46,827 bases of DNA. It comes from a virus. Position numbers and translations under genes: made by a program. Under the pieces are notes generated by a model that saw nothing but the letters and a program-made list of their open reading frames with translations, ran no database searches and had not been told where the DNA came from. The DNA lies in IMG/VR virus record IMGVR_UViG_3300045988_062651, positions 1 to 46,827 of that record; one strand, written 5' to 3'. Within the stretch, counting starts at the first letter, position 1, and each line of letters opens with the position of its first letter. Shown here in pieces: positions 2,325-46,827 of this stretch.

Positions 2325-2379
2325 TACCAAAATTATATAAAGTTGCACAAGGACTGATACAACATATAAATATAATTGC

Positions 2380-2387: not shown

Positions 2388-2408
2388 TAGTAGTTAAATA
2401 GAAGCACA

Positions 2409-2591
2409 ATGAACCAATACGACAAACAATACTTCAAGGATGCGGTTCTTGGAACTGAGTCCAGACACACGGAGCACTGCGACGTGGAATATAACAAGGA
2501 CCTTGATGCGTATATGCTCTTCAAGAACGGCAAACTTGTCGGAGAGGCTAAGGTCCTGAACAACGAAGTATATATTACAAACCTTAAATAG
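2409..2591 (+). CDS. Hypothetical early protein (60 aa)
   Basis: ORF directly downstream of the promoter element at 2380. Confidence 0.55.
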   Translation: MNQYDKQYFKDAVLGTESRHTEHCDVEYNKDLDAYMLFKNGKLVGEAKVLNNEVYITNLK

Positions 2592-2599
2592 TCACTAAG

Positions 2600-2875
2600 A
2601 TGGAAAAGAAAACTGAAAAGCGCACCTTTAGCGCTATCGCTGCGGAGGTCATGAACCTCTGGAAAACAAAGTACTGAAAATATCTTCCTTGGTCCTTGAA
2701 GGGCGCTCTCCCTTATCTGGAAGCAATGCTTGAGTGCGACACCACCGACAAGGACGCGCGATATTACGCAGAGACCGTAGAAAGCGTGGTCATCTGCTTC
2801 CGGGCCAACATTAACAACTGGAGAGGCGCCGACGCCAAGCGCATCAAGGCGGAACTCAAAGAGATGCTCAAGTAA
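2600..2875 (+). CDS. Hypothetical early protein interrupted by an in-frame TGA at 2675-2677 (25 codons, TGA, 65 codons, TAA)
   Basis: Hand translation gives MEKKTEKRTFSAIAAEVMNLWKTKY*KYLPWSLKGALPYLEAMLECDTTDKDARYYAETVESVVICFRANINNWRGADAKRIKAELKEMLK. The leader AACCTTAAATAGTCACTAAG precedes the ATG at 2600. No other plus-strand ORF occupies this gene-sized slot. Confidence 0.5.
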
Positions 2876-2902
2876 AAAGTAATCTTAAAAACATTAAGTA
2901 AT

Positions 2903-3289
2903 ATGGAAAAAGCAAAAGAAATCGAGCTCTTACAGAGCCTCAAGGGTGACACTTATTTCGCTCGGCTTTTTGGCGACCAACAAATCGACGCCATGTGTGA
3001 GAACATTAAAAATGACTTCCCAATTGAACTTGGCTTGAATCTTTTTGAGGGTTCTTCTGTTGCTAAAGAGAATGCGGAACTGAGGAAACAACTTACTCGC
3101 CATGTAAACTGGGAAGAGTCTGTAGCAGAAGGCCTCCTCCTTAAAGCGAATGAACATATGGATGACTCGCTTGAGGGCCTCGCTGCGCGTCTTATTGGCT
3201 ATGAGAAATGTCTGGCTATCAAGCTCCACCTCGCGTTACCCCTTTCTGGAGAAGACCGTGACACTCTAGTTAAACTTTTAACAAAATAA
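2903..3289 (+). CDS. Hypothetical early protein (128 aa)
   Basis: ORF with the leader AATCTTAAAAACATTAAGTAATATG. Confidence 0.7.
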   Translation: MEKAKEIELLQSLKGDTYFARLFGDQQIDAMCENIKNDFPIELGLNLFEGSSVAKENAELRKQLTRHVNWEESVAEGLLLKANEHMDDSLEGLAARLIGYEKCLAIKLHLALPLSGEDRDTLVKLLTK

Positions 3290-3294
3290 GTATT

Positions 3295-3591
3295 ATGAAA
3301 AAGATTAGCGCAAAAAGTAAGCTCGGCCAACACTTTGTTGAGGCTTACATAAGAAGTACACGGCATACCCTTAAAGACGCCTATGTCAAACCAAGTAGCG
3401 CAAAACAGGCTGTCTTCAAACGTTGCCAGCGGCAATGCGAAGCGGAGAAGGGCGATGGCCTTAAGGTCATTAGCTTTAATTGTAACCAATTCACAGTTGC
3501 CTTTGAAGTGACTACAGCTTCTGGAGCTACCGAGCTCCGCGTAATAACCAAGCGTAATGACTATGTAATCCCTTTTGGAGACAAGATATGA
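3295..3591 (+). CDS. Hypothetical early protein (98 aa)
   Basis: ORF preceded by TAAGTATTATG. Confidence 0.65.
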   Translation: MKKISAKSKLGQHFVEAYIRSTRHTLKDAYVKPSSAKQAVFKRCQRQCEAEKGDGLKVISFNCNQFTVAFEVTTASGATELRVITKRNDYVIPFGDKI

Positions 3592-3914
3592 AAGCAAATG
3601 AACTAATGCTTGGCGACTGGGTGAAAGATAAATATAAACCCAAGCCTTATATGGTGGATAGTTGGAAGGACTTTAATAGTGCTGAAGATTTATCCCCTAT
3701 CCCGCTCACTTATGAAATCCTTAAAAAGAATGGATGGAAAGACACTGAATTTTGGTGCGAATATCAAGATGATAATATTTATATTCAGGCTTCTCTACCA
3801 TATATGCGAGGAAGAATTAACGGGATTGAGATTGAGCGCTTCCAATGCGAGTATATACACCAATACCAGCATTTACTTCGCTTGTGTGGACTTGAAAAAG
3901 AAATAAGTATATGA
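3588..3914 (+). CDS. Hypothetical early protein (108 aa)
   Basis: ORF whose start overlaps the upstream stop (ATGA), suggesting translational coupling. Confidence 0.65.
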   Translation: MKANELMLGDWVKDKYKPKPYMVDSWKDFNSAEDLSPIPLTYEILKKNGWKDTEFWCEYQDDNIYIQASLPYMRGRINGIEIERFQCEYIHQYQHLLRLCGLEKEISI

Positions 3915-4049
3915 AAGCAGTTCTTACCAAGCAATCAGGCATGAAGTCCAATACTTTCATTTTGGTAAAGATAATGAGGGAGCAAAAGCCCCTGAGAGCA
4001 AAATGAAAAATAACTTTATAAAAATAGCATAAAAGTCAAAAAAAGTTAT

Positions 4050-4057
4050 TATATTTG
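4050..4057 (+). promoter_or_regulatory. -7 promoter element TATATTTG (early promoter 4)
   Basis: Exact match, 52 nt upstream of the ATG at 4109. Confidence 0.55.
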
Positions 4058-4108
4058 TAGAAAGAAAAATTAAATTTTTTAACCTTAATTTTTAATCCTT
4101 AAAGTATT

Positions 4109-5089
4109 ATGAAACGTAATTTCAAAAAAATGTCCGACGAAGAGTTGGTTGCTCTTCAGGAAACCGCAGATGAACAGACACTTGCTGCTATCGAAGCTGA
4201 ACTTGAATCCCGTGCTACTGCAGCGGCCGAACAGGTCTCTGTAGAAGAGCAGACCGCAGACCCTTCTGAGGACGCTGAGGCCGAGACCGCCGATGGTGCT
4301 GAGCAGGACAAAGCCGCAGAGCTTGAGGAGCTTCTTGCTGAGTGCCAGAAGAATGTTGGTCACCGCTGCAAACTGGTCCCTGTTGGTACCATCGAGTGGG
4401 AAGAAGGTACGGTTGTCGGCTGTGTGAAAATCAAGCGTTCCAACACGGTTGCTTACGCAGTCAAGCTTGACAACGGTAAGCGTGTAGTGAAGAACTACAA
4501 GGCTCCTCTGTTCGAGATTCTCGATGAGGTTGTCGAGCGCGCCAAGGTTACTCGTCATGCTGGTTCACGCACCAAGGCTGAACTTTGGTCTGAGGAGCGT
4601 ATGACTGAAGAAGTTAACAAGTATATCCACAATGTTGGTCGTGCCATTGTCCTCAAGGGTGCTACTGAGGAAGAGAACGTCACTGGCCAGATTACAGGTA
4701 TCGTACCTGTTAAGCGTTCCAACTCAGTTCTCTATCGTGTAGCGGTTCCTGCTCCTACTGAGGAGGACCCTGAGGCTGTTGCCATCGTTCACAAGTCTGT
4801 TGCGAACATTGCTGCTTATGACATCATGGCTGCCACTGAGGAATCTGAGGCTTTCAACGCCAACTATATGGCCCGTCGCGAGAACATGGCCAACCGTACA
4901 CCTCTGACTGGCGCCGAGCTTGTTCTTGACCTCGAGCTTAAGCTTGAGAAAGCTAAGGAGGCCGTTAAGAAAGCTGAAGAGCGTGTCGCTACTCTGGAGA
5001 AAGCTATAGCTGAGAAGAAAGCTCAGCTTGAGGCTACCGCTGCAGAGCCTACCGCAGAAACTACTTCTGAAGAAGAGAACATGCTTTAA
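4109..5089 (+). CDS. Hypothetical early protein (326 aa): acidic N-terminus, two copies of the module shared with 730-1182, C-terminal coiled coil
   Basis: Motifs GHRCKLVPVGTIEWEEGTVVG and VGRAIVLKGATEEENVTGQITGIVPVKRSNSVLYRV. The N-terminal 70 aa are rich in E, D and A. It has the conserved leader. Confidence 0.8.
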   Translation: MKRNFKKMSDEELVALQETADEQTLAAIEAELESRATAAAEQVSVEEQTADPSEDAEAETADGAEQDKAAELEELLAECQKNVGHRCKLVPVGTIEWEEGTVVGCVKIKRSNTVAYAVKLDNGKRVVKNYKAPLFEILDEVVERAKVTRHAGSRTKAELWSEERMTEEVNKYIHNVGRAIVLKGATEEENVTGQITGIVPVKRSNSVLYRVAVPAPTEEDPEAVAIVHKSVANIAAYDIMAATEESEAFNANYMARRENMANRTPLTGAELVLDLELKLEKAKEAVKKAEERVATLEKAIAEKKAQLEATAAEPTAETTSEEENML

Positions 5090-5118
5090 TCAGTATGCAA
5101 ACGTCTAAACATAGGACA

Positions 5119-5149
5119 AGCCCTCGAGTACCCGCTCGGGGGCTTTTTG
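5119..5149 (+). terminator. Intrinsic terminator
   Basis: Stem AGCCCTCGAG/CTCGGGGGCT followed by TTTTTG. Confidence 0.7.
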
Positions 5150-5172
5150 TTTAATTATAAATCCTTAGAATT

Positions 5173-5385
5173 ATGCCATACAAAAGACCCTTATGGTACG
5201 TTGTAGACGACGGAGGCGTGTATAACGTGTTCTCCTCGGACGACTTCGATGAAGACGGACAGTATACGGTAAATCCGGAATACTCTCTCGACGACTTTGA
5301 TATTATCGCCAAATACACGACGGCGGACGCCGCTTGGAATGAAGCTGAGCGCCTGAATCAATTAAGTGAAAAAGACAGGTATTAG
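5173..5385 (+). CDS. Hypothetical acidic early protein (70 aa)
   Basis: ORF with the leader ATCCTTAGAATTATG. Confidence 0.6.
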   Translation: MPYKRPLWYVVDDGGVYNVFSSDDFDEDGQYTVNPEYSLDDFDIIAKYTTADAAWNEAERLNQLSEKDRY

Positions 5386-5387
5386 GC

Positions 5388-5519
5388 ATGAAAGCAAAAT
5401 CAAGGATAGGTTTTTTATTTGGTCCAGAATTGGCCAAAAATTTTTGGATAGTAAATTATATTCTGGATATTTTCTGGCTTGCCAGAAGAGCTGAAATATA
5501 TCTAATTTTTCAAATTTAG
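5388..5519 (+). CDS. Possible 43-aa ORF lying inside repeat element A
   Basis: ATG at 5388 and TAG at 5517. The peptide MKAKSRIGFLFGPELAKNFWIVNYILDIFWLARRAEIYLIFQI resembles a frame of element B at 34253-34347. Confidence 0.25.
   Translation: MKAKSRIGFLFGPELAKNFWIVNYILDIFWLARRAEIYLIFQI
5407..5502 (+). repeat. Dispersed ~95-nt repeat, element A (partner is element B at 34253-34347, opposite strand)
   Basis: Hand alignment of A against the reverse complement of B shows shared blocks CCAGAATTG, AAAAATTT, TGGATAGT, AATTATATT, GCCAGAAGAGC and AAATATATC. Confidence 0.7.
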
Positions 5520-5573
5520 AACTTATTCATCAGTCCATTTTCCTCATTTCGAAATTTACCCTTAAGATATAAT

Positions 5574-6110
5574 ATGTTTGAGACTTTTCAGTTATCTAAT
5601 GACGCTTTCTATTACCTCAAAAATGGAGAGGAACCGCTCGTTGATGAGGCGCTGGATGAAGCACTTGTAGTTGAGGCCCTATATCCAGACGGGTTTACAA
5701 TACTTGACTTCAAACCACTTGGTAATACGGGCTACATTGAAGCGCGAATAGGCCCTAAGATAGTAATGCCGGCCAAAGCTTTGCAGCCTGCCATTAAGCC
5801 TATAACTCAAAGGTGCCAAGAGCTTGGTTATAATGCTGAGACCGTAGAGCGTAACCGCAAAGAGTATGCTGACTCAGATGAAGTGCAAATGCTTTCAAAT
5901 GTATGCCGCTTAGAAATTGTTTGGCTTAATGCTGGGCGCACACAACTAAGGGTTTACTGGAACCGGCTTGACTTGGGCCAAAGAACAGTATTCGGTGAGT
6001 TTCCTGTTTGGTCAACGCCTAAAGGCCTTAAGTATTTTCAGGGAACAAATCCTAATGGCACATTTTACAGATTTTATTTGAAGCATTTTAATAAAGTAGT
6101 TAAATCATGA
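5574..6110 (+). CDS. Hypothetical protein (178 aa)
   Basis: Long ORF with the leader ACCCTTAAGATATAATATG. Confidence 0.7.
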   Translation: MFETFQLSNDAFYYLKNGEEPLVDEALDEALVVEALYPDGFTILDFKPLGNTGYIEARIGPKIVMPAKALQPAIKPITQRCQELGYNAETVERNRKEYADSDEVQMLSNVCRLEIVWLNAGRTQLRVYWNRLDLGQRTVFGEFPVWSTPKGLKYFQGTNPNGTFYRFYLKHFNKVVKS

Positions 6111-6544
6111 CACTTGCAGAACTTATTGAACAATGCGTACGAGTCGAAGGACAAGTGACCGCCGCGCACATTCCTATGGTCAATGCAGATGGAAGTCCCT
6201 TCGAAGTGGAAAATCTTAGCATTGTTACCCGAGAAGATGGTACATTATATGTGGCAGTCCAAGGTCCTGAGAGCCTTCAGCCCGGAACCTACGCAATTCC
6301 TGAAGATTGTACTTTCAAGTACGCTAATCGTCAGATTATTGTGGTTCCTAAAAAAGTCAAAGATACAAGCGTTTTACGGTGCGGTACTTGTAAGCACATC
6401 AAGACCGGAAACAAATGCTGTAAGGGCCAATACTGGGAAACACAGTATTGCGAACTTAAACCAAAAACTATTGGCGGTAAAGCCGAGTATTTTTATCATG
6501 TAAGTCCGAGCGCCAAAGCTTGTGATAAATACGAGGAAGCTTAG
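6107..6544 (+). CDS. Hypothetical Cys-rich protein (145 aa)
   Basis: ATGA overlap with the upstream gene. Contains the cysteine cluster CGTCKHIKTGNKCCKGQYWETQYC. Confidence 0.65.
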   Translation: MTLAELIEQCVRVEGQVTAAHIPMVNADGSPFEVENLSIVTREDGTLYVAVQGPESLQPGTYAIPEDCTFKYANRQIIVVPKKVKDTSVLRCGTCKHIKTGNKCCKGQYWETQYCELKPKTIGGKAEYFYHVSPSAKACDKYEEA

Positions 6545-6553: not shown

Positions 6554-6605
6554 TATATAAAGTAAAACCTCCTGACAAGATTGCCAGGAGGTTTTACTTT
6601 ATATA
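6554..6605. terminator. Bidirectional terminator at the convergence of the early (+) and middle (-) transcription units
   Basis: Perfect 21-bp inverted repeat TATATAAAGTAAAACCTCCTG / CAGGAGGTTTTACTTTATATA with a 10-nt loop. Confidence 0.75.
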
Positions 6606-6732: not shown

Positions 6733-7446
6733 CTATTTTTCGACTCTAAAAACATAACCTTTACCATATACCGTTACTATCTTAACTTTAGGGTCCGCAG
6801 CAATGTATTTGCGTATTGCAGTCATATAGAAGTCCAGGCTACGTTTTGCAAACACATCAATCTGGTGCCACACAGCACTTAGTATTACTTGCGTCATAAG
6901 TAATTGATTTGGGCTGCTAAAGAGGTACGTCATAATGGAGAACTCCTTGTCCGTCAGTTCTATAGTCTTGTGCCCGTCAAAGAACGTGTGGTCCTCAGTA
7001 TTCAAGACCATATCGTGAATTACGTACTCTTTCTTGAATTGTAAAAAGCGAAGAGGCGCATGTTTTGTCCAGGTACGTAGGCGCCACACAAATTCTTCTG
7101 TATTATACGGTTTACGTACAAAGTCTGAAACACCGGCTTCATAAGCAGCAACGGCAGCAAGCGGGTCGTCGTTCTCAACACAAAGAATAATTGGAACGTT
7201 AGGATAATACTTTTGCATTGTGTGCACAAGCGTAAGGTCATTAGGCCTGTCGTACTTATGATAATAATCAAGTACTGCAACGTCAATATTATCTTTGGCA
7301 ATTTCGGATAGCGCGTTTTCCTCGTCTACAGCCCAAGCATTAAAGCATTGTTCCTGTAAGTATTTTACAAGAGTGTCCGCGCCATCATTTTGGAACACCA
7401 AGACACTATACTGCCCAAGGTGCTCAAGTATTGATTGTCTACTCAT
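6733..7446 (-). CDS. Orphan OmpR/PhoB-family response regulator (receiver plus winged-helix DNA-binding domain) with a degenerate receiver pocket
   Basis: Receiver: VLVFQND replaces the hhhhDD motif, VAVLDY retains the acceptor Asp, PIILCVE lacks the conserved Thr/Ser, and DFVRKPY retains the Lys. C-terminus: LTDKEFSIMTYL...VWHQ...RSLDFYMTAIRKYI...IVTVYGKGYVF matches the trans_reg_C pattern. Confidence 0.8.
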   Translation of the reverse strand: MSRQSILEHLGQYSVLVFQNDGADTLVKYLQEQCFNAWAVDEENALSEIAKDNIDVAVLDYYHKYDRPNDLTLVHTMQKYYPNVPIILCVENDDPLAAVAAYEAGVSDFVRKPYNTEEFVWRLRTWTKHAPLRFLQFKKEYVIHDMVLNTEDHTFFDGHKTIELTDKEFSIMTYLFSSPNQLLMTQVILSAVWHQIDVFAKRSLDFYMTAIRKYIAADPKVKIVTVYGKGYVFRVEK

Positions 7447-11181: not shown

Positions 11182-11759
11182 TTGCCGAGAGTTATAAAGT
11201 CTTCTGCATAAGGCAGACTACGAATCATATCAAGAACTGCACCCCAGTCCTCTTTCAGCTTATCGTGAATACGCTGATGATAGAGGTTTCGGAGGCTCAT
11301 GTAATTAGTGCTGCACCTCATAAAAAGCTGCAGACCAAGAGGACAGTTACTGAGGAGAACCATATAGTTCTCATAGCTCGGATTAGCATTGTATGCATCA
11401 AGATACTCTTGCATGCTGGCCTTAGTCTTCTCGGTCACATACTTATTGTACCAACGAGCTTCCATAATTCTTGATAGCCTGTGGTCCTTACTACTGGAAG
11501 ACACAATGTCAATAAAATGATAGCGCTGAAGCTGCGGAGTGAAATACTGTGGGTACACAATATCGAAAGACACACGTATACCAATCAAAAAGTTTGGATG
11601 ACCAGAATTACTACTAAGACTTGCCAGATTCTTGGCTCGCTCTAATGACTTTCTAAAGTCTTCTGCAGAATAGTCAGAAGGTTCAACACGCGTAGCATTG
11701 CGGCAAGCACATACACTTTCCTGAAGGTCGTAAACCTTTATGTTGCTAATTTCTACCAT
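11178..11759 (-). CDS. Divergent ThyX-like protein lacking the canonical RHR motif
   Basis: The layout FDIVYPQYFTPQLQRYHFIDIVSSSS ... MSLRNLYHQRIH resembles the ThyX core, but RHR reads RYH and the downstream AQ.EIR-type motif is absent. Confidence 0.4.
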   Translation of the reverse strand: MVEISNIKVYDLQESVCACRNATRVEPSDYSAEDFRKSLERAKNLASLSSNSGHPNFLIGIRVSFDIVYPQYFTPQLQRYHFIDIVSSSSKDHRLSRIMEARWYNKYVTEKTKASMQEYLDAYNANPSYENYMVLLSNCPLGLQLFMRCSTNYMSLRNLYHQRIHDKLKEDWGAVLDMIRSLPYAEDFITLGK

Positions 11760-13467: not shown

Positions 13468-13762
13468 CTAAAAACTGTGTTAACTTTTCCTGTGTATCAA
13501 TAACAAATACTCTAAATCCTAAAGCTCTTAATTCCTCGTGTCTTACTAGCTGTAGTTTTCTTGGCTTAATACCTTCGGACTTGAGCTCTACAAAAATTGC
13601 ACGTCCTTCTGGTAATAATATCAACCGGTCTGGCATGCCCGCATACATATTACCTTGTAACTTCAGGCATATACCACTACGCTGACGTATCTTCTCAACC
13701 AGAGAACGCTCGAGAGTTTTCTCGCTATCCTTCTTTTCTCTTATAATACTTCTGGACGCCAT
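13454..13762 (-). CDS. VRR-NUC domain nuclease
   Basis: GMPDRLILLPEGRAIFVELKSEGIKPRKLQ, a PD..(D/E)xK-type motif typical of VRR-NUC. Confidence 0.8.
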   Translation of the reverse strand: MASRSIIREKKDSEKTLERSLVEKIRQRSGICLKLQGNMYAGMPDRLILLPEGRAIFVELKSEGIKPRKLQLVRHEELRALGFRVFVIDTQEKLTQFLDEQI

Positions 13763-16103
13763 AATTTACAAAAGTCTTAGTTGAGCCTGTATTCTCCCAA
13801 TGGTCAATAGTTCTCATTATTTCATTAAGGTCTCGGGTATTATATCTTGTCATATCAGCACGGTCTTTACCTAAGCACTCACACCAAATCTCTGCAACAC
13901 ACACATAATCTTTGCGTACTGTACCATTTGCTGAGAGAGGGTCTTCAAGCCATTGTTTACGCTCAAATATATCTTTAGAGTCCCAGTCTTCTGGATAAAG
14001 CCGGTCAAGATAATTAATTATAATACCCCGTCTGTTATCTACTTCTTCATGTTTATTCTGAGCATCAACTGCAAGTTTAGCGGCTTCATCCTGGAGATAC
14101 AAAGGCTCATGGTTCTTATAGATTTGATAAGCCTCGGCCCAAATCTGGTCAACCTCTTCGTCCGTCAGGTCTTCAATAACAGACTTTGTAACGCGCGCTA
14201 TATCTACATCTACCGGTAAAAAGCGCCTATTGCCGGAAGAGTCATGTAAAAAGTCTTGTGAGTTGGTTGTACCAAAAAATACACACTGGCGCTTATAAGT
14301 TTCAACCACGCGGCCATAAGCCGGACGGAATGAATCTTCACGCTTTGATATGTAATGCTTGATGGACTCGACTTCTGCTTTCTTCAAGCCTGAGAGCTCT
14401 GCCATTTCAACAATCCATGCACCTTGAATCTGCTCGAAAGCCTCTTTACCTTGAACCGTTGTAAATGTATCTGAGAACCAGTCTCTACCAAGCTTTTTAA
14501 CAAATGTACTTTTATAAGAACCTTGCGGACCTACAATTACCAAAGCTGTGTCAAACTTAATACCAGGCTGGAACACACGAGCAACTGCGGCCGTAAGTGT
14601 TTTTCTTATAATCGCTCTTGTGTACGTAGTATCTTCAGCGCCAAAGTAGTCAATAAGAAGCGTATCAACACGTGGAGAGCCGTCCCAAGATAAGCCCATA
14701 AGGTATTCCTGAATTGGGTGATACTGATTTTTCTCAAAGTCAAGAGCGAAGGCATCATCAATCTTTGCGAAAGACCCGATATTATACAAGCACTCAATGT
14801 AATTATGTAGACCTGCATAATCTACGTCTTTTAGTGGCTCTTCACCTTTGACAATTCTCCAAGGAAGGCTCTTTACAACATAGCGCTTGTTATTAAAAGT
14901 GTTTAGCTTGAAAGCGCCTTTTAATTTTGGGTCATTGGAAAGAATTATATTGATATTGTTTGCTGTAGTTTCATACTCGCCTTTTGTATTAACCGTAAGG
15001 CTCTTAAGCCATTCAGTGTCTTCAGGCGCTGGGTCTTCATAAGGCTCAGCAAAGTCAAATTTTGCGGCCTGGATATTCTCTGTCGCAATTCGTTTGCGGA
15101 TTTCTGGGTCTTTAGTTGCGAAGACTTCCATAGCCTTAAAACTGGCCGTATCTTCTGGCTTTTTATCCAGATTACCAAATTTGTGAATACGAACCAAGTC
15201 AAACGCATTACAGAGCCTATTGCCCGCAGGGTCTGTACTATGGTGTGAATATGCAAACAAATCTTTGTATACAACCAAACCTGAAGCAGTTGAACCTTGT
15301 GTATACGTGTATCGGTCCTTACCAGATTTAACATACACGTCAGAAAGGAAAGTTTCAATCGCAGCGCTCATTGTATAGGCTCGGCAGAAAGTTCCTACAA
15401 TACTTGATTTCTCAGTAGGGTTCTCCTGTTTGTTAATAGTCTTAGTTATATACTCGGCCTCGTCTTCGGGTGATGGCCACTCCATAACATTATGCCAATC
15501 ACTATATGTAGCAAGAACCCTATCAGCAGATAGGAATGCACCGTCCTGAAAGTGGAAATCATACTCCATGTCCTTCGGAATAGAAGGCCAGAACATTAGG
15601 CGATTTATGTCAAAGGTTGTCGAGTCATAACAGTTAATACCGGTGTTACCCGCAATTTTTCTCGCTATAGCTTGATACTCTTCGCAAGAGACCTGTCGGT
15701 CCAAAGGAATGATGAGACGGTGTCTAACATGATTTGGACCTGAGGAGTGCGTGGCATGAAGAACTGCTGCACAATCATAAAGCATAGTGAAGTCCCACCA
15801 GAAATTATCGTGGGAAAAGTCAACATCAAGCGTTATTATTTGCCGGTAAGAAACACTGGCTTTATCGCGCTTGCCACCAACAAGAAAACCGCCAACATAA
15901 CCGCCAAGGTCTTTGACTTTTGCTCGGTCAGCCTTTGGCATAGCATTGTATTCCTTGTAGGTTTCAACAGTTACCACTGGTTTGGCTAAGCGAGCAACAA
16001 GCTCTGACCACATAATTTTTGTATTACGCCAGGTTTTACTTGTTGCACTTGTGCCAATCGCTATGTCTAACTGCTCGTCTATAGTTACTTTAAGCTCAAT
16101 CAT
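13725..16103 (-). CDS. DNA primase / P-loop helicase (VirE / D5-like C-terminal NTPase)
   Basis: 792 aa with Walker A VGPQGSYKSTF. It sits between the polymerase and VRR-NUC, as in the DUF2800-DUF2815-PolA-primase-VRR-NUC-SNF2 phage replication module. Confidence 0.75.
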   Translation of the reverse strand: MIELKVTIDEQLDIAIGTSATSKTWRNTKIMWSELVARLAKPVVTVETYKEYNAMPKADRAKVKDLGGYVGGFLVGGKRDKASVSYRQIITLDVDFSHDNFWWDFTMLYDCAAVLHATHSSGPNHVRHRLIIPLDRQVSCEEYQAIARKIAGNTGINCYDSTTFDINRLMFWPSIPKDMEYDFHFQDGAFLSADRVLATYSDWHNVMEWPSPEDEAEYITKTINKQENPTEKSSIVGTFCRAYTMSAAIETFLSDVYVKSGKDRYTYTQGSTASGLVVYKDLFAYSHHSTDPAGNRLCNAFDLVRIHKFGNLDKKPEDTASFKAMEVFATKDPEIRKRIATENIQAAKFDFAEPYEDPAPEDTEWLKSLTVNTKGEYETTANNINIILSNDPKLKGAFKLNTFNNKRYVVKSLPWRIVKGEEPLKDVDYAGLHNYIECLYNIGSFAKIDDAFALDFEKNQYHPIQEYLMGLSWDGSPRVDTLLIDYFGAEDTTYTRAIIRKTLTAAVARVFQPGIKFDTALVIVGPQGSYKSTFVKKLGRDWFSDTFTTVQGKEAFEQIQGAWIVEMAELSGLKKAEVESIKHYISKREDSFRPAYGRVVETYKRQCVFFGTTNSQDFLHDSSGNRRFLPVDVDIARVTKSVIEDLTDEEVDQIWAEAYQIYKNHEPLYLQDEAAKLAVDAQNKHEEVDNRRGIIINYLDRLYPEDWDSKDIFERKQWLEDPLSANGTVRKDYVCVAEIWCECLGKDRADMTRYNTRDLNEIMRTIDHWENTGSTKTFVNYGVQKYYKRKEG

Positions 16104-18087: not shown

Positions 18088-18089
18088 AG

Positions 18090-18168
18090 TGCGCTCAACT
18101 AGATTCGAACTAGCATTGTCAGCAAGCGGTCAAGCAAGACTGAGGACTTACCATTAGTCTATGAGCGC
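18090..18168 (-). tRNA. tRNA-like element 1: canonical acceptor, D and T arms, but a 15-nt anticodon loop
   Basis: Minus strand: GCGCTCA TA GACT AATGGTA AGTC C TCAGT CTTGCTTGACCGCTT GCTGA CAAT GCTAG TTCGAAT CTAGT TGAGCGC A. The loop contains the direct duplication CTTGCT(T)GAC. The 3' end lies 2 nt before the polymerase ATG. Confidence 0.5.
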
Positions 18169-20615: not shown

Positions 20616-21082
20616 TACTCAAGACCATTAAGAAAATCGTACATTTCCTGATACTTGGCCACGTCAAGTTTTGTAATTGACGGAGTACCAAGCTCTGTGA
20701 GCTTCTGCTTTATTTCCACACGGTGCGCATTCATCTTAGTCATTGCCAGTTCACGAAGACCGTCAATTGTAACAGAAGACTGTGTAGACACAGTAGGAGC
20801 GGGTGCCACAGCTGGCTTAGGCTGTTCTGCGGGCTTTGCAGGTGCTGCCGCAGGTGCCGCAGCAGGTTTAGGCTGTTCCGCAGGCTTTGCAGGTGCCACA
20901 GTGGTAGATTTTGCAGGCGCTGCAACAGCTGGCTTAGGCTTAGGCTGTTCAGCCGGTTTCTGTTGTTCAGCTGGTTTAGACTGCTCTCCCGCAGACTTAG
21001 CCAGACCTCCGAATAACGAGCTCAGGAAAGCCTGAGTGCCGTCATCGAGTTTTACATTTACGTTAATTTGAATAGGTTCCAT
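20615..21082 (-). CDS. Hypothetical protein with a Pro/Ala/Glu/Lys-rich repeat linker
   Basis: KPAEQQKPAEQPKPKPAVAAPAK...KPAEQPKPAAAPAAAPAKPAEQPKPAV lies between small N- and C-terminal domains. Confidence 0.7.
   Translation of the reverse strand: MEPIQINVNVKLDDGTQAFLSSLFGGLAKSAGEQSKPAEQQKPAEQPKPKPAVAAPAKSTTVAPAKPAEQPKPAAAPAAAPAKPAEQPKPAVAPAPTVSTQSSVTIDGLRELAMTKMNAHRVEIKQKLTELGTPSITKLDVAKYQEMYDFLNGLE
20805..20980. repeat. Imperfect tandem coding repeat (unit about 50 nt, GGCTTAGGCTGTTC.GC.GGCTTTGCAGGTGC)
   Basis: The units at 20814-20846 and 20865-20897, and a degenerate third at 20931-20977, encode the KPAEQPKP repeats. Confidence 0.7.
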
Positions 21083-21491
21083 CTATAATATTGTTAATGA
21101 TGTTTACTAAGTCCTGAACGAGCAAGTCGCCATCTGCAACAACGTCATTGAACAATTCTTTGTCGTCGGCTGTAACGGTTAGCACGTGAGTGGCATAAAT
21201 ATACTTAGCCACGTAGATACCCCGCTTAATACAGAAGCTGTCCTGCTTTTCTGTAGCATCATGCCACAGGTCACAACCCGCTTCATATATAGCGGAAACG
21301 GACACGCCTACATACTGTGCGAGGGCTTCAAGCTGGTCTACTGAAACGTGGCCTTTTCCTTTAAGAATTCGGCGGAGCGCGAGGTCAGCATACTTGCTTG
21401 TAGGAAACATGACACTTGCTACGTCAGCCTGGTTCAGCTTGTAGTTTTTAAGCACGTTGTTCAAATAAAATAGTGATTGTTGTTCTTGCAT
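21063..21491 (-). CDS. XRE-type helix-turn-helix DNA-binding protein; first gene of the middle operon
   Basis: LNQADVASVMF...LRRILKGKGHVSVDQLEALAQYVGVSVSAIY has the HTH_XRE pattern. It lies directly downstream of control region 1. Confidence 0.6.
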   Translation of the reverse strand: MQEQQSLFYLNNVLKNYKLNQADVASVMFPTSKYADLALRRILKGKGHVSVDQLEALAQYVGVSVSAIYEAGCDLWHDATEKQDSFCIKRGIYVAKYIYATHVLTVTADDKELFNDVVADGDLLVQDLVNIINNIIDGTYSN

Positions 21492-21702
21492 TGTTCTGCC
21501 TCATTTATTTTCATATACGAATATAGCTGAAATTTTTCATATAAAAAAATAAAATTAAAAAATTTTTTCGTTTTGCATTTAAGGGCTTTTTCAGCTAATT
21601 ATTAAGGCGTAAAAAGCATACGTAGCTGAAAACAGGCAGGCCAAGCTTCCTAAACAATACGTTCGAGCTCTAAACAATCCTAAACAATACTTTGTTTAAC
21701 CC

Positions 21703-21727
21703 TAACTAATTGAAAATCAATCAGTTA
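21703..21727. promoter_or_regulatory. 25-bp palindromic operator, copy 2
   Basis: TAACTAATTGAAAATCAATCAGTTA. Confidence 0.6.
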
Positions 21728-21804
21728 GACCATCCTAAACAATAAAACAATAATTTCTATATATAGTATATATGAATTTTATAAAATCCGTAAAATCTAT
21801 ATAA

Positions 21805-21812
21805 CAAATCTA
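21805..21812 (-). promoter_or_regulatory. -7 promoter element TAGATTTG (class II), reading toward the middle operon
   Basis: The plus strand reads CAAATCTA. The extended minus-strand string TTAGATTTGTTA is shared with 29085 and 42488. Confidence 0.5.
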
Positions 21813-21871
21813 AATTACAGTAATGGTCCAATGTTTTTATATATTTTATTGTTTTATTGTTTAGACTGTCC

Positions 21872-21896
21872 TAATTTATTGAAAATCAATCAGTTA
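21872..21896. promoter_or_regulatory. 25-bp palindromic operator, copy 3
   Basis: TAATTTATTGAAAATCAATCAGTTA. Confidence 0.55.
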
Positions 21897-21995
21897 TGAT
21901 AAACAAAGTATTGTTTAGGATTGTTTGAACGGCCAAATTATTGTTTAGAAACCGCATAACATGGGAATCAGTTTGAGACCGAACAGCTTGCGCAA

Positions 21996-22661: not shown

Positions 22662-22781
22662 CTACTTAGACTGAAGAGCCGTAACGATTGCCTTCAGTAC
22701 CGGAATAAGCTCGCTAGCTCTAAGCTGGTTGCCCTGTTCAAGCATCTTGTTAAGAGCAGCAGTCATTTCTTCATTTGTCAT
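22662..22781 (-). CDS. 39-aa ORF, paralogue of 24116-24268
   Basis: The peptide is MTNEEMTAALNKMLEQGNQLRASELIPVLKAIVTALQSK. It shares a 44-nt core (43/44 identical) with the second copy. Confidence 0.45.
   Translation of the reverse strand: MTNEEMTAALNKMLEQGNQLRASELIPVLKAIVTALQSK
22702..22745. repeat. 44-nt near-perfect direct repeat, copy 1 (partner 24189-24232)
   Basis: GGAATAAGCTCGCTAGCTCTAAGCTGGTTGCCCTGTTCAAGCAT compared with the same string carrying A for G at position 12. Confidence 0.9.
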
Positions 22782-23306: not shown

Positions 23307-23759
23307 TTAAAGTTTTTCGCCTTTATACGATTTGTTATACAGAATCTGCCGCCGTTGTTTACCCTCCAACTTGTGCGAAAAATGCACAAACGTTGGGTAA
23401 ATTATCATCTGGTCAAACGGCAAATGATTGGCCGCTGCCATTCTGGCCAATTCAATAGGTTTAGGAAAAGCGACATCCGCCGCTTCTCCCTTTACGTGTT
23501 GTGATGTCGGAACACCGCCAACAGCGGCATTCAGTTCGCTACATCTATACCCGGAATTTATCCGAAGCGGTACGCCCGCAATGTCGCGCAATGGCTGTAG
23601 AACATTATCCACAAGCGACTTTATAGCATCGCGGACAGCAAAGGAACGAACAACATTGCAAATGCCCTTTTCTTCCGCTATTTTGCTGTCCTCAAATTCC
23701 GAAAATGAAAAATCTTTACTGATTGTGCCCATATCATTTGGTTTTGTTAATTTCGTCAT
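23307..23759 (-). CDS. Peptidase M15 (VanY / L-alanyl-D-glutamate peptidase type) endolysin
   Basis: SGYRCSELNAAVGGVPTSQHVKGEAADV ... FVHFSH contains the H-x6-D ... H zinc ligands. Confidence 0.8.
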   Translation of the reverse strand: MTKLTKPNDMGTISKDFSFSEFEDSKIAEEKGICNVVRSFAVRDAIKSLVDNVLQPLRDIAGVPLRINSGYRCSELNAAVGGVPTSQHVKGEAADVAFPKPIELARMAAANHLPFDQMIIYPTFVHFSHKLEGKQRRQILYNKSYKGEKL

Positions 23760-24135
23760 ATACTGCCTTTATAGTAGGTACCTCATAGGCAGTAAGCGGG
23801 AAATCGGGCTCTTCATTGCTAACAAACGTCACTACATTTATAGCCTTCAAAAGTACGCTCATATGCATATTTTTTCCATACCTTCTCAGTGTTTGTATAT
23901 TTGACGTCACTTCTGAGCCACTGCTTTCGTCGTACATCACTCGATACCATTCGTCAGTTTTCCATGGAAGAAGATAAATACAACCATATCCGGCTTCATT
24001 TGGGGCTATTATAGCACAAGGATTTTTATCCAAAATTGCGGCTTTTTCTGCCGGAATCTCAAAGTCAATACCGCTTGGAAATATGACATCTTCAATATTG
24101 GAGATGTCAGGCATTTCAATTTCTACTACTGGCAC
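23734..24135 (-). CDS. Hypothetical protein (GTG start at 24135 or ATG at 24114), possibly fused to 24116-24268 through a G6 run
   Basis: This frame is open upstream through FRNQLGGGGV. It lies +1 relative to the small ORF. Confidence 0.55.
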   Translation of the reverse strand: MPVVEIEMPDISNIEDVIFPSGIDFEIPAEKAAILDKNPCAIIAPNEAGYGCIYLLPWKTDEWYRVMYDESSGSEVTSNIQTLRRYGKNMHMSVLLKAINVVTFVSNEEPDFPLTAYEVPTIKAVYDEINKTK

Positions 24136-24268
24136 TCCGCCGCCCCCCAGTTGATTCCGGAATTAAATCTATAATTTTATTTAGTGCAGGAATAAGCTCA
24201 CTAGCTCTAAGCTGGTTGCCCTGTTCAAGCATAGCCGTCAGGGCCATGCTAATTTCATTCTTTGTCAT
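24116..24268 (-). CDS. 50-aa ORF, paralogue of 22662-22781
   Basis: The peptide is MTKNEISMALTAMLEQGNQLRASELIPALNKIIDLIPESTGGRRSASSRN. It ends just after a G6 homopolymer (plus-strand C6 at 24143-24148). Confidence 0.45.
   Translation of the reverse strand: MTKNEISMALTAMLEQGNQLRASELIPALNKIIDLIPESTGGRRSASSRN
24189..24232. repeat. 44-nt near-perfect direct repeat, copy 2
   Basis: See 22702-22745. Confidence 0.9.
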
Positions 24269-42504: not shown

Positions 42505-44136
42505 TTAATTACCCCTCTTAATACCCTTATGCAAACTCTTACTAGTTCGCATTTCGATAATGCCTGTCAGCATATCAGGCGCATCATCATGCTTTGTAGT
42601 CTTATTATTCTTTTTGCGGTACGTCTTTATGGCCGCTGCAAATTTAGGCCACCTCTTTTCCCAGCCTTCAGGAAAGTAGATGTCTGAACATACAAGAGCT
42701 GAATTAGAGAATATGCGGACTTGCTTGTTCTTTGTCTGCGTGAACGTTTCAATAACAGAAAACATATTGTGCTGTACTTCACGCAATATACGTTTAACGT
42801 TTCGTGCAAACTGACGACCGCCATTGTTGCCCTCAATTCTTGCTCGTTTAGTTCTATTAACTGTAAGCATTCTAGCTAGCTTAGGCTCAGTTACTTCCAT
42901 CGGCTCATCAGAGTAAAGGATGTCGGTTATGTACGCGCCCATCGGTGTATTTACGAAACAGCCAGAAGCCAAGAAGTCAGCACCGGTGTCAGCTGTATCT
43001 GTGTAATTCCATCGTTGAGTAGAAGACAAGAAAGCCTGAGGCGGGTCCGCAGGATTATATGTTTTGAACTCCTCATACATTAGGCCCTCTTTAGGCGTCG
43101 GGTCCTGCTGGTACTGAGTGTCATAAGTTAGCGGGTCCACCTCCTGTAGATGATGCAGCTCTTCAACAGTGTGTTTTACAGGCCACAATGCTATCTCCTC
43201 TGTCTCCTCAACTATCACGTCCTCACCGCTCTCGTCTTGAACATGCTTGGTGACGGTCTCGGTACGTAAAGCGGGCAAGCTAAGCACGGTCCAGTTGTCT
43301 GGCTCTGTGTCCAATAGATAGCCGCATAAGTCGCGCTCATGCAGGCGCTGCATTATTATAATAATAGGTGTCTCCCTGGAGTTAGTACGTGAACGGATAG
43401 TATTCTCAAACCGGGAATTGATACGCTCTCGAACAATATCAGATGTTGCGTCCTCCGGTTTTAATGGGTCATCTATAACAATAGCGCCAGGGAAGACATT
43501 AGACGCAGCGCCAATTAAAGCCAACTTAGTCTGAGTCGTCTCGTCAAAAGAAAAGGCTTGCGATATGCGCTCAGCCATCGCAGCGTCAGCCGCGGCAGAC
43601 ATCTCTTGCATGGCGCCGGCACCGAAACCAGTAACCTGGCCCTGCGTTGATACCGCATAAAATGAACCTTTGGCTTTAGTTTCCCAAGACCTGGTACTGC
43701 CTTTGTTCTCATTAAGAAGCGCTGACTGCGGAAACAGCTCTTTATAGAGCGGTAACGTCATTATCTCTCTGATAGTAGACGAGTTGTCATTAACCAGCAA
43801 GTCTGAATACGACAGGTGCATAAACTGGCACTTAGGGTTAAGGGCAAAGCACCAGGATATGAACATCTTAATAGCGATAAGGGTCTTGCCATATCGTGGA
43901 GGCATGTTAATGATAAGATGCTTGACGTCTCCATCAACAACTGACTGTAGGGCGGTGAATAACTTTTTATGCAGGTCTGCCACAATAAGAGACGAGCCAT
44001 ATTGTGCCTTAAACATAGCTCGTGAGTAGCTCTCAAGTGAGCCTTTTAGCTCTAACGCAAAAAGGTCTCTTGCGGAGACCTGTCCCTTGACTTGTGCAAT
44101 AGCCGCCTGCTGTATATCCTCTAATGACTGTGCCAT
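42505..44136 (-). CDS. terL: Terminase large subunit
   Basis: Walker A-like MPPRYGKT, Walker B AIVIDDPLKPED, 543 aa. Confidence 0.85.
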   Translation of the reverse strand: MAQSLEDIQQAAIAQVKGQVSARDLFALELKGSLESYSRAMFKAQYGSSLIVADLHKKLFTALQSVVDGDVKHLIINMPPRYGKTLIAIKMFISWCFALNPKCQFMHLSYSDLLVNDNSSTIREIMTLPLYKELFPQSALLNENKGSTRSWETKAKGSFYAVSTQGQVTGFGAGAMQEMSAAADAAMAERISQAFSFDETTQTKLALIGAASNVFPGAIVIDDPLKPEDATSDIVRERINSRFENTIRSRTNSRETPIIIIMQRLHERDLCGYLLDTEPDNWTVLSLPALRTETVTKHVQDESGEDVIVEETEEIALWPVKHTVEELHHLQEVDPLTYDTQYQQDPTPKEGLMYEEFKTYNPADPPQAFLSSTQRWNYTDTADTGADFLASGCFVNTPMGAYITDILYSDEPMEVTEPKLARMLTVNRTKRARIEGNNGGRQFARNVKRILREVQHNMFSVIETFTQTKNKQVRIFSNSALVCSDIYFPEGWEKRWPKFAAAIKTYRKKNNKTTKHDDAPDMLTGIIEMRTSKSLHKGIKRGN

Positions 44137-44148: not shown

Positions 44149-44925
44149 TTATTTTAACAATGTCTCACGAATAATAACATAAGCCTCTCGGGATATTGGC
44201 TGGTCAGGAATAAGGCCCGGCACGGCAGACGGTACTCCCGTGATTGGCGTTGCGTCAAGGCTCATAGGGCCTTTGCCGAACAGCCTGTCCCAAATGCGCT
44301 CGATTGTGCACGTCTCGCCAATTCTTGCGTCAAGTTGAATACGTTTAATGATGGCTTTTATAGCGAGCGGCATTTTGTCATTAGTCATTAAGGCCGCTAG
44401 CTGTGTTTCATTGCAAGTGAGAAGGCAGGCCAGCAAATTGGCCGTATCTGTCTTGCTGAGGCGGACTGACAGGTTAATACCAAGGTTGTTGAGCAGTTTA
44501 GCCATCTCAGGTCTATTAGTGCCCTGGAGAGTTTGAAGTGTTAGCAGCTGAGAGGCTGACATCTCTTGGCCGGTCTTAGTTACTACCTGTACCTCTTTAA
44601 GGTCAAGCGGGTCCGCCGGTGTTTGTTCGTCTATTGCAGACTCAATAGCTTTACGCTCGGCTTCTGCCTTTGCCGCAGTAAGAGATTCATCAGTGTCGGT
44701 TGGAGCGAGGTCCTCTACGCGCATCCCGTGCTTTGCCGCCAACTCCTCCCGCTCTTTTTGCTTTTGCTGCTCCTCGAGACCCGCATTACGAGCTTTGAGC
44801 TGAATGCGCGCTAACTCTTTAGCTGAAAGCTGTTCATGGATAGCCTCGGCCTGTGCCTCGCGTTTCTCCGGGGCAACATTGGGCAGAATGTCGCCAAGTC
44901 TAGATGATATGTTGTCTTTAGTCAT
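44149..44925 (-). CDS. Putative terminase small subunit (258 aa)
   Basis: Assigned only by position immediately upstream of terL. Confidence 0.4.
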   Translation of the reverse strand: MTKDNISSRLGDILPNVAPEKREAQAEAIHEQLSAKELARIQLKARNAGLEEQQKQKEREELAAKHGMRVEDLAPTDTDESLTAAKAEAERKAIESAIDEQTPADPLDLKEVQVVTKTGQEMSASQLLTLQTLQGTNRPEMAKLLNNLGINLSVRLSKTDTANLLACLLTCNETQLAALMTNDKMPLAIKAIIKRIQLDARIGETCTIERIWDRLFGKGPMSLDATPITGVPSAVPGLIPDQPISREAYVIIRETLLK

Positions 44926-45315: not shown

Positions 45316-46056
45316 TTAAAGCAAGTCCTCCGGGCTCACCGGCGGACGGCTGTTAGGGTCCGCGTAAAAGTAATAGCCCTGCTGTAGCCTTCCCGGGTTC
45401 ATTAGTCCTCGGCGGACATTGCGATAGTCTATCTGCAACTCGTGGGCTGTGTCGGCTATTGTGGCGAACACGCCGACGGCCTCACCATTATAGTCATACG
45501 CGTATACGCGCACAGATTGTCCGGCGCCAAGCCTTGCCGTTGTGACACGTCTCAGATTAAGCTCCTCCGGTGTCAGATAGTGGTTAGTCGTAACAATTGA
45601 GCCTTTGATAACCGCTGTATTACCCCAGCAACAGGCATGCACAGAATGAGCGCCTACACCGAGGTCCTTGGCGCACACGCCTTCTAAAGGATATAGCTCG
45701 ACGAGTCTGTCGGCGTCAAGATTATAGTAGCACCATGCGCCTTTGTGAAGGCGGCGAACTCCTTCTGTGCAGGTTGGCTCAGCAGCGAACTCTTCTTCCG
45801 TGTGTGGCGTCAAATGTACCTCGATTTGAGGCTTGGCCCAATTTTGAGTTATGGGTATACCGCAGAACGGTTCTTGTGCCAATACCTGGTACAAATCTTC
45901 GATAATGTTCTTACTGTAGTAGAAACGGTGTATAATTGTGTCGCCGTATATTAGCCAGTACTCTCGAGGAGCATTTAGCGGAGCTGGTTCCAGAGGTGGT
46001 ACCTCGTCAAAAAGAGTCACGAGACCTTTTACCTTAACAAGTAGGGATTGTTCCAT
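45316..46056 (-). CDS. Hypothetical protein, first gene of the late operon; the C-terminus resembles a NUMOD1/IENR1-type DNA-binding module
   Basis: VRVYAYDYNGEAVGVFATIADTAHELQIDYRNVRRGL...GYYF, matched to the motif from memory. Confidence 0.55.
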   Translation of the reverse strand: MEQSLLVKVKGLVTLFDEVPPLEPAPLNAPREYWLIYGDTIIHRFYYSKNIIEDLYQVLAQEPFCGIPITQNWAKPQIEVHLTPHTEEEFAAEPTCTEGVRRLHKGAWCYYNLDADRLVELYPLEGVCAKDLGVGAHSVHACCWGNTAVIKGSIVTTNHYLTPEELNLRRVTTARLGAGQSVRVYAYDYNGEAVGVFATIADTAHELQIDYRNVRRGLMNPGRLQQGYYFYADPNSRPPVSPEDLL

Positions 46057-46126: not shown

Positions 46127-46134
46127 CAAATATA
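46127..46134 (-). promoter_or_regulatory. -7 promoter element TATATTTG (class I string TATATTTGTA) for the late operon
   Basis: The plus strand reads CAAATATA. The element lies 71 nt upstream of the ATG at 46056. Confidence 0.5.
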
Positions 46135-46199
46135 GGCAATCTTGTGAGAAAATTGGCATTTTTTAGCGAATTTAACAGAAAATGGGGTCTTAAACAATA

Positions 46200-46224
46200 T
46201 AACTGACTGATTTCCAGCCAGTTA
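46200..46224. promoter_or_regulatory. 25-bp palindromic operator, copy 4
   Basis: TAACTGACTGATTTCCAGCCAGTTA. Confidence 0.55.
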
Positions 46225-46274
46225 GGCCTTTTTCTAAACAATCTTAAACAATCATAAACAATGATTGTTTGTCC

Positions 46275-46299
46275 TAACTGACTGATTTTCAATAAGTTA
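46275..46299. promoter_or_regulatory. 25-bp palindromic operator, copy 5 (the best palindrome)
   Basis: TAACTGACTGATTTTCAATAAGTTA. Confidence 0.6.
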
Positions 46300-46447
46300 G
46301 ACCTTCTTAAACAAAACAAACACAATTTCCTATATATAGATATATGGAAATATCAATTTTTATATAAAATTATTTAGTGCCATATATCTAAAAACAATTC
46401 TATATAATTATTTTATATATTTTATTGTTTTATTGTTTAAGAGGACC

Positions 46448-46472
46448 TAATTTCTTGATTTTCAATTAGTTA
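46448..46472. promoter_or_regulatory. 25-bp palindromic operator, copy 6
   Basis: TAATTTCTTGATTTTCAATTAGTTA. Confidence 0.55.
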
Positions 46473-46515
46473 CGGAAAACAATACTTTGTTTAAGATTGT
46501 TTAAGACCGTTTTTC

Positions 46516-46540
46516 TAAATAGCTGATTTTCAACCAGTTA
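46516..46540. promoter_or_regulatory. 25-bp palindromic operator, copy 7 (degenerate left half)
   Basis: TAAATAGCTGATTTTCAACCAGTTA. Confidence 0.45.
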
Positions 46541-46673
46541 CATATTTTTTATTGTTTAAGCGCGGTCCATTTTCCATTATTATTCGAGGGCCCTCCGTGT
46601 CAGCTACGAACTACGTTATAATAGATTTGAGGACCAGGCGGATATTTAGTGCCCTTTACGCAGTAGTTCCAAT

Positions 46674-46827
46674 GTTTTAGTGCCTATCTCGAATGGCTGT
46701 AAATTTTATTATGTATACGCAATATTTAGTGCCTATCTCGAATTACTGTAAATTTTATTATGTATACGTATTATTTAATGCCTATCTCGAATGATTGCAA
46801 ATTTTATTATGTATACGTGTCCTGATT
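46674..46827. repeat. Three tandem 49-bp repeats (iteron-like), running across the circular junction
   Basis: Units start at 46674, 46723 and 46772. The unit consensus is TATTTAGTGCCTATCTCGAATnnnTGnAAATTTTATTATGTATACG. The 11-mer TATTTAGTGCC also occurs at 46371 and 46643. Confidence 0.85.
46773..46827. repeat. Terminal overlap, second copy (identical to nt 1-55)
   Basis: 55/55 identity with the contig start. Confidence 0.95.

Follow-up and report, generated by a model that had tools for sequence, protein, structure and literature searches.

What function could be served by the composite non-coding element of short direct and inverted repeats at 46191–46560 of the IMG/VR virus record IMGVR_UViG_3300045988_062651? 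The whole stretch of 46,827 nucleotides (positions 1 to 46,827 of the record), here called the window, was analysed. An initial annotation had described the element as the second copy of a control region at 21651–21947, and had proposed that the two copies were functionally specialised, for example as an operator/enhancer for late transcription versus an origin of replication or a packaging-associated site. The origin was the option supported, by the anatomy of the elements, by covariation of their repeats with a protein domain and by the homology of that protein to known initiators. With a probability of about 80%, 46191–46560 (copy 2) is one of two origin-type elements, in which TAAACAAT would be the iteron read by the winged-helix C-terminal domain (CTD) of the phage primase-helicase.

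TAAACAAT was found at 16 exact sites genome-wide (3.0 ± 1.6 expected), 14 of which lay within 21651–21947 or 46191–46558, those of the left arms being on the + strand and those of the right arms on the − strand. A 25-nt palindrome, TAACTnAnTGAnnnTCAnTnAGTTA, had seven matches when up to 3 mismatches were allowed (0 expected); copy 2 accounted for four, copy 1 for two, and the seventh lay outside both (Table 1). Local alignment of copy 1 with copy 2 gave 74% identity over 273 columns and a score of 169 (shuffles 25 ± 3, maximum 40), confirming that one is a second copy of the other, and each copy aligned with its own reverse complement (scores 158 and 129; shuffles 28 ± 6). The positions annotated within copy 2 (TAAACAAT sites, 10-bp phasing, inverted motif, four palindromes, core and mirror arm) all held. 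From the outside inward, each arm consisted of outer iterons spaced by 10 bp (first forward and then inverted), a ~37-bp spacer occupied by the palindrome, and two inner iterons; between the mirror arms lay an AT-rich core of ~100 bp (AT content 0.8–0.93 in 30-bp windows in each copy). TATATA- or CGTATATACG-type cores were present at the same place in the elements of relatives. There were 13–14 AACAA cores per copy, and only copy 2 had an extra shell, a palindrome plus an iteron, at both ends.

The Reps of Staphylococcus aureus pathogenicity islands (SaPIs) are self-loading helicase-initiators which recognise iterons by a C-terminal winged helix, and in SaPI origins an AT-rich centre, located just 3′ of rep, is surrounded by 6–12 iterons, no fewer than two per side and in opposite orientation (PMC9371898). 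Origin binding by PriRep5, a 790-aa Rep with a fused primase, is lost without its CTD (PMC9371898). The 792-aa primase-helicase of the window resembled these proteins in both its helicase and its CTD and, like PriRep5, carried a fused primase: its residues 373–728 matched SaPI1 Rep (PDB 7PDS_A) at E=3e-76, and a CTD profile matched residues 336–464 of the SaPI1 Rep CTD at E=1.2e-7. As in SaPI origins, short opposed iterons, at least two per side of an AT-rich centre, were present in copy 1 and copy 2, and the iteron was matched to the CTD (see below). The elements of the window agreed with the SaPI description except in position and copy number.

Both regions were compared by blastn with 50,697 phage records, giving zero matches, and relatives were found via proteins instead. 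A wider search returned 80 loci of relatives, designated by L-numbers. Two sets of these phages had nearly identical helicases and different iterons. The helicases of L091/L093, L092 and L094 were 99–100% identical before the last 32 residues and 62–72% identical within them; all ~9 iterons differed, while core and spacers were nearly unchanged. L056 and L059, two phages of the Bacteroidota branch that carry palindromes, were 99.4% identical over 771 residues, and four of nine differences fell in the last 32 residues (E781D, T786N, N788K and Y797C, changing STKNF to SNKKF), a clustering with p ~3e-4 by a binomial estimate; the iterons changed from AAACAAT to ACACAAT, and core and palindromes were the same. 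Over the last 52 residues, phages with a TAAACAA iteron were 56–58% identical to the window protein, whereas BF503P1, the closest overall at 61%, was 46% identical and L025, with iteron GGACAATA, 23%. These comparisons suggested that the iteron sequence is tied to the last ~30 residues of the helicase. Because they covary with the CTD of the primase-helicase, the TAAACAAT boxes are predicted to be origin iterons rather than late-transcription operators, and an operator/enhancer as the main function was not favoured.

In four IMG/VR genomes, with flanking proteins 76–88% identical, both elements were kept, and iterons, palindromes and promoter boxes were invariant. The closest cultured relatives were the Bacteroides fragilis phages BF503P1 and kin (large terminase 57% and primase-helicase 61% identical). 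Related elements occupied both positions in BF503P1; the palindrome core ATTGAAAATCAAT was kept in them and the repeats differed, being of G[GT][CT]AAAATG type in both. A GCCAWAWTGGCA-like motif family stood in place of TAAACAAT in both BF503P1 elements, and a dense array of more than 12 such boxes was seen between tandem repeats and early genes (L010 5300–5660; BF503P1 ~51300–51660). Relatives at ~50% helicase identity, including the cultured Croceibacter phage P2559Y, had the same architecture with the iteron (G/A)TAAACAA, or with the variants GTAAACAG in L019 and GGACAATA in L025. Two copies were present in P2559Y, L026, L056, L057, L077 and BF503P1; those of P2559Y were at 23629–23830, ahead of the replication genes, and at 42882–43153 continuing to ~200, ahead of terS. 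A copy in front of each of the two major operons is the rule in the Bacteroidota branch.

A different position was found in the branch at 45–50% identity. Where an array was present in the locus, its start was nearly always within ~50 bp of the helicase stop codon; the exceptions were L097, where the array was ~2.5 kb downstream, and L101, where another array, ~8 kb upstream, had a different iteron. The two origin-like elements of L101, at 1224–1461 and 11445–11681, had the iterons GTCAACA and GGATACA, respectively, and only the second lay beside the helicase gene; the other may be a remnant or reflect an additional specificity. Iterons of this branch were lineage-specific (GTCTACA, GTTACCA, GTCAACA, GGAAACA, GTGCACA, GGTATCC, ATGGACA and GGCAACA). 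In Firmicutes-type relatives, among them the cultured Enterococcus phage phiFL4A (iteron GGATAC) and Staphylococcus phage phi2 (iteron TGATGCAACA), the array was also directly 3′ of the helicase gene. Overall, the architecture recurred throughout phages with a primase-helicase of this VapE/SaPI-Rep type. Since the copies of the window lie away from this gene, whereas those of most relatives at 45–50% identity, phiFL4A and phi2 adjoin it, the elements are best described, by comparison of these sequences, as a displaced and duplicated variant of the SaPI-Rep-type iteron origin. Compared with SaPI origins they also have more iterons, additional outer clusters and a 25-nt palindrome in each spacer, and they belong to a virulent-looking tailed Bacteroidota phage rather than a Firmicutes satellite. 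No published description of these elements in Bacteroidota phages was found in the literature searched, which does not prove that none exists.

In the proposed mechanism, the CTDs of the primase-helicase would bind the iterons, and two helicase rings would form at the inner iteron pairs, which face opposite ways, aided by the outer iteron clusters one spacer away. The ~100-bp AT-rich core would then melt and the helicase would load itself there, and replication of the circle would then pass to the fused primase together with PolA, SSB and recombination proteins of the phage. A separate dimeric or DNA-bending factor, encoded by phage or host, would probably act on the palindromes to modulate this complex and perhaps the adjacent promoters.

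Several observations weighed against the origin. A SaPI origin is single and immediately 3′ of rep, and the Firmicutes phage arrays are likewise at the helicase gene, whereas the two copies of the window are 5.5 kb and ~30 kb from it, ahead of the major operons. GC and AT skew, in both the window and P2559Y, tracked the coding strand and gave zero independent origin signal. Each copy lies 60–100 bp upstream of a promoter box, making a regulatory role for the bound initiator possible, and the palindromes and the TATTTAGTGCC box in the copy-2 core were left unexplained by the origin model.

The same position upstream of a TAnnTT(T/C)G box facing the downstream operon would suit an element devoted mainly to transcriptional control, through which the response regulator 6733–7446 or the helix-turn-helix protein 21063–21491 would time the replication and structural operons. 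The phage does encode a protein with Response_reg and Trans_reg_C domains, 10-bp direct repeats suit binding by the OmpR family, and the palindromes are ~85–92 bp upstream of both divergent promoters. We nevertheless consider this explanation unlikely, since the iterons covary with the helicase CTD and the element of the Firmicutes-type relatives is 3′ of the helicase gene, not at an operon head. The OmpR-type response regulator was ruled out as the reader of TAAACAAT by its confinement to the close clade of the window: no homologue was found in the whole genomes of P2559Y and BF503P1, nor in the fetched parts (up to 10 kb either side of the helicase gene) of other relatives with the same architecture, and the same iteron architecture occurred without one in P2559Y, L016, L017, L020 and L026. 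The helix-turn-helix protein was ruled out as an iteron reader too. Its helix-turn-helix region is conserved in BF503P1, where the iterons differ, and no homologue was detectable in L025, which has the architecture; the database search returned close relatives only, and the BF503P1 comparison was a manual alignment. No phage protein common to the window and P2559Y and absent from BF503P1 was found. A packaging role for copy 2, as a pac or cos recognition region for the downstream terminase genes, was judged very unlikely. Copy 2 is indeed upstream of the terminase-bearing operon and adjoins 49-bp tandem repeats, and the window, the contigs of two relatives (L002 and L003) and the BF503P1 record end in or near equivalent repeats; such ends could mark either physical termini (a pac region) or assembly breaks, which at tandem repeats would give contig ends of this kind too. 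This argument bears on the 49-bp repeats, which are candidates for a packaging role, and not on the composite, whose equivalent copy at 21647–21951 is ~24.6 kb away beside the replication genes and far from the terminase, and whose counterparts in relatives adjoin the helicase gene. The packaging-associated site of the initial annotation was therefore unsupported for the composite. Two ~300-bp copies with inverted-repeat symmetry might also recall insertions of a small non-autonomous element with terminal inverted repeats, similar to a miniature inverted-repeat transposable element. This was rejected as scarcely credible: synteny of the positions extends to phages with proteins just 50–60% identical, no target-site duplication could be read at the element edges, and the arms are phased repeats of protein-binding type covarying with a phage protein, the helicase, in its CTD.

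The remaining alternative concerned the division of labour between the copies. Copy 2 might be a cis-acting helper or regulator which pairs or loops with copy 1, like crr of P4 or oriR of SPP1, with firing confined to a single copy, which could be either one. The presence of one iteron in two arrays, separated by ~24.6 kb of a 46.8-kb circle, would fit such an arrangement, and the tandem repeats beside copy 2 in the L056 clade contain iterons, recalling the repeated iteron units of P4 crr. Since the complete architecture is present in both copies, including an AT-rich core which is homogenised between them and would be needless in a pure binding array, we regard a helper as a possible but less likely arrangement. 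Retention of the AT-rich core in both copies favours two sites that would function in unwinding. Pairs of copies within a genome scored 169–306 and pairs between genomes 29–109, with no signal of orthology by position; being far more alike within than between genomes, the copies undergo concerted evolution, via gene conversion or a shared constraint from one reader. Full architecture in both copies, their retention in relatives and this concerted evolution left the annotated functional specialisation without support. More speculatively, and with low confidence, the origin of this family of Bacteroidota siphoviruses may have moved off the helicase gene and been duplicated to the heads of the replication and structural operons, with gene conversion maintaining the similarity of the copies. 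Bound initiator and palindrome factor would there initiate replication from two sites roughly half a genome from each other and gate or insulate both operons, origin firing directly timing the late genes.

The palindromes require a separate account within the origin reading. The TAAnnnATTGAnnnTCAATnnnTTA form was present in the origin spacers of the clade of the window, BF503P1, L042, L044, L048, L051, L054, L056–L059, L079 and L080, with any iteron type, and was not seen in P2559Y or other relatives at ~50% identity. This set is a subset of the clades of the Bacteroidota branch, and its sole known host is B. fragilis (of BF503P1). Spacer length was conserved among relatives, and the orientation of the central AAA/TTT varied among the palindromes of the window and flipped between relatives. 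The "palindromic operators" of the initial annotation are real palindromes, but they form an insert restricted to certain clades, within a spacer whose length is conserved. Because they are present whatever the iteron type, they would be bound by something other than the helicase CTD, either a conserved phage regulator or a host factor; the helix-turn-helix protein 21063–21491 remains a candidate. An IHF-like site is possible. The IHF consensus WATCAANNNNTTR, which is that of E. coli and may differ from the preference of the host factor, had an exact match in three of the seven palindromes; genome-wide the 7 matches compared with 3.3 expected, and 7 were also reached in 6 of 100 shuffles, which is not significant.

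A Bacteroidota-type −7 box was found between each element and its downstream operon. As annotated, copy 2 was upstream of the structural (late) operon, with TATTTAGTGCC boxes and the 49-bp tandem repeats nearby. The reported lack of an internal TAnnTTTG in 46191–46560 was also correct, the nearest being outside it at 46127–46134 (−) and 46622–46629 (+). As evidence of specialisation this difference from copy 1 did not stand: the copy-1 core box, TAGATTTG at 21805–21812 (−), is TAGACTTG or TAGGCTTG in four relatives, and since it is not conserved there, the difference is probably not meaningful. Exact TATATTTG was seen upstream of four + strand gene groups (206, 1837, 2380 and 4050) and the structural operon (46127, −), and such boxes probably mark the strong promoters used by host RNA polymerase in this phage. 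A scan for sigma-70 promoters and terminators was uninformative, Bacteroidota promoters being outside its coverage, and detected no terminator in the stretch separating the lysis gene from copy 1. Each 49-bp repeat begins with a T(A/T)TTA(G/A)TGCC box, of which there was one in the copy-2 core and none in the copy-1 core. Relatives keep 4 tandem repeats (L001 2180–2400), and BF503P1 has ~66-bp tandem repeats at the equivalent place (L010 5780–5902 with L009 1–130). The tandem repeats of the L056 clade, unlike those of the window, each carry an iteron pair TAAACAATGGAACAATGG (L056 19850–20100, reverse strand display).

Positions 1–55 and 46773–46827 of the window were 100% identical over 55 nt, with the junction inside a 49-bp tandem repeat. 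The window (GC 43%) is therefore a complete circular genome of ~46.77 kb, that of a tailed, virulent-looking Bacteroidota phage. Copy 2 is in a ~1-kb divergent intergenic region that spans the window ends and reaches as far as the first + strand gene, and copy 1 fills a 504-bp gap separating the lysis and replication blocks. The structural and lysis block encodes a NUMOD1-domain protein, a GNAT acetyltransferase, candidate small terminase, large terminase, portal, major capsid, tape measure, tail and lysis proteins; neither the NUMOD1 gene nor the GNAT gene next to it had a BF503P1 counterpart. The replication module encodes the helix-turn-helix-like protein, exonuclease, SSB, PolA, primase-helicase, VRR-NUC, SNF2 helicase, ThyX, dUTPase and, last, the response regulator, which is ~90% conserved in four close relatives. 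Coordinates of the features are given in Table 1.

Table 1. Positions and strands of the elements, their parts and the surrounding genes in the window.
Feature	Position	Strand	Evidence or remark
Origin-type element, copy 2, whole composite	46191–46560	.	mirror iteron arms and AT-rich core; kept in 4 relatives
Outermost left iteron TAAACAAT	46191–46198	+	exact motif
Palindrome, outer left	46200–46224	.	centre ~92 bp upstream of start expected from 46127–46134 box
Outer-left iteron cluster	46235–46271	+	TAAACAAT at 46235, 46245 and 46255 (exact 10-bp spacing); inverted ATTGTTTG at 46264–46271
Palindrome, left spacer between outer and inner iterons	46275–46299	.	spacer length conserved in relatives
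Inner-left iteron pair TAAACAAA, AAACAAAC	46308–46321	+	degenerate
AT-rich core, putative DNA-unwinding element	46322–46423	.	AT content; similarly placed cores in relatives
TTTCCTATATATAGATATATGG within copy-2 core	46326–46347		
One TATTTAGTGCC box within copy-2 core	46371–46381		
TTATTGTTTTATTGTTTAA	46422–46440		
Inner-right iteron pair ATTGTTTT, ATTGTTTA	46424–46439	−	
Palindrome, right spacer	46448–46472	.	
Outer-right iteron cluster AAAACAAT, TTTGTTTA, ATTGTTTA	46476–46503	−	10-bp spacing
ATTGTTTAA	46496 and 46551		
Palindrome, outer right	46516–46540	.	3 mismatches
Outermost right iteron ATTGTTTA	46551–46558	−	
49-bp tandem repeats	46676–46827	+	2.9 copies (46676–46818); adjoin copy 2, not part of element
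Fifth palindrome of the intergenic region, outside element	123–147	.	~85 bp upstream of rightward start; conserved in L001
Origin-type element, copy 1	21647–21951	.	kept in 4 relatives
Copy-1 left iterons	21651, 21671, 21681, 21691(−), 21736, 21744		
Copy-1 core	21752–21847		
Copy-1 right iterons	21848(−), 21856(−), 21900, 21910(−), 21920(−), 21940(−)		
Copy-1 inner iteron pairs	21736–21751 (+), 21848–21863 (−)		
Copy-1 palindromes	21703–21727, 21872–21896		
−7 box TATATTTG, Bacteroidota type, structural operon promoter	46127–46134	−	invariant in 5 genomes
−7-like box TATATTCG, upstream of replication operon	21541–21548	−	TATATTTG in relative L006
−7 box TATATTTG of rightward gene block	206–213	+	divergent from copy 2 across circular junction
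VapE/SaPI-Rep-type primase-helicase, 792 aa, proposed initiator	13725–16103	−	Pfam PF05272 VapE-like, E=3e-83
CTD codons (~residues 687–792), proposed iteron reader	13728–14045	−	wing motif GSTKTF...YGVQKYY
Structural and lysis genes	46056 to ~22000	−	gene map
First gene of structural operon, 246-aa protein	45316–46056	−	NUMOD1 DNA-binding motif (E=3.6e-5)
Candidate small terminase subunit	44149–44925	−	
Large terminase	42505–44136	−	
Replication module	21491 to 6733	−	gene map
Small helix-turn-helix-like protein, first gene of replication operon	21063–21491	−	
OmpR/PhoB-type response regulator	6733–7446	−	Response_reg and Trans_reg_C; PHROG 731
Small genes without assigned function	278 to 6544	+	

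A few other features of the genome were recorded. A 25-bp inverted repeat at 6554–6605 (96% complementary, 2-nt loop) lies exactly at the convergence of the + and − gene blocks and is likely a bidirectional terminator. ARAGORN called a tRNA-like sequence with undetermined anticodon at 18089–18168 (−), between the PolA and SSB genes, and an Rfam scan of the window gave zero RNA family matches. A 53-nt direct repeat (92% identity; 22693–22745 and 24180–24232) brackets part of the lysis region. The + strand genes 730–1182 and 4109–5089 have a common domain, GHR..(I/L)VP.GTI.W.EG, and both products match a single 347-aa BF503P1 protein (record 48128–49171).

The layout of the two elements recalls other replicons. 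The alpha protein of satellite phage P4 is a multifunctional primase-helicase with a C-terminal DNA-binding domain which binds ori and crr. In layout, P4 resembles the window in having the same short iteron in two separated cis elements of a small circular genome; crr is not a complete origin but an array of iterons needed in cis, whereas mirror arms and an AT-rich core are present in both elements of the window. SV40, papillomavirus and herpes simplex virus have origins with an AT-rich centre between inverted initiator sites, and two helicase rings of SF3 or related type are thought to load on this centre; these are eukaryotic viruses without sequence relationship, and the analogy is one of layout only. 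In the tailed Bacillus phage SPP1, oriL and oriR, bound by G38P, are two distant repeat regions beside an AT-rich unwinding element, and of these initiator-binding regions only one is in the replication region, as here (PMC5737612). G38P differs from the primase-helicase, which is itself the proposed initiator, in being a separate origin binder which needs a loader and a DnaB-type helicase, and the SPP1 repeats and proteins are unrelated to those of the window.

The origin reading would provide a function for the two largest non-coding regions in a widespread phage group (its cultured members infect Bacteroides fragilis and Croceibacter, a marine flavobacterium) and would name the protein that reads these regions. 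The swaps pair a few CTD residues with single-base iteron changes (STKNF/AAACAAT versus SNKKF/ACACAAT), offering a testable code for SaPI-Rep-type initiators. A second complete, conserved and homogenised origin copy is unusual in a 47-kb phage and provides a tractable case for why two initiator-binding origins persist, as in SPP1 and P4. The element together with the helicase could serve as a minimal replicon for the genetics of Bacteroidales.

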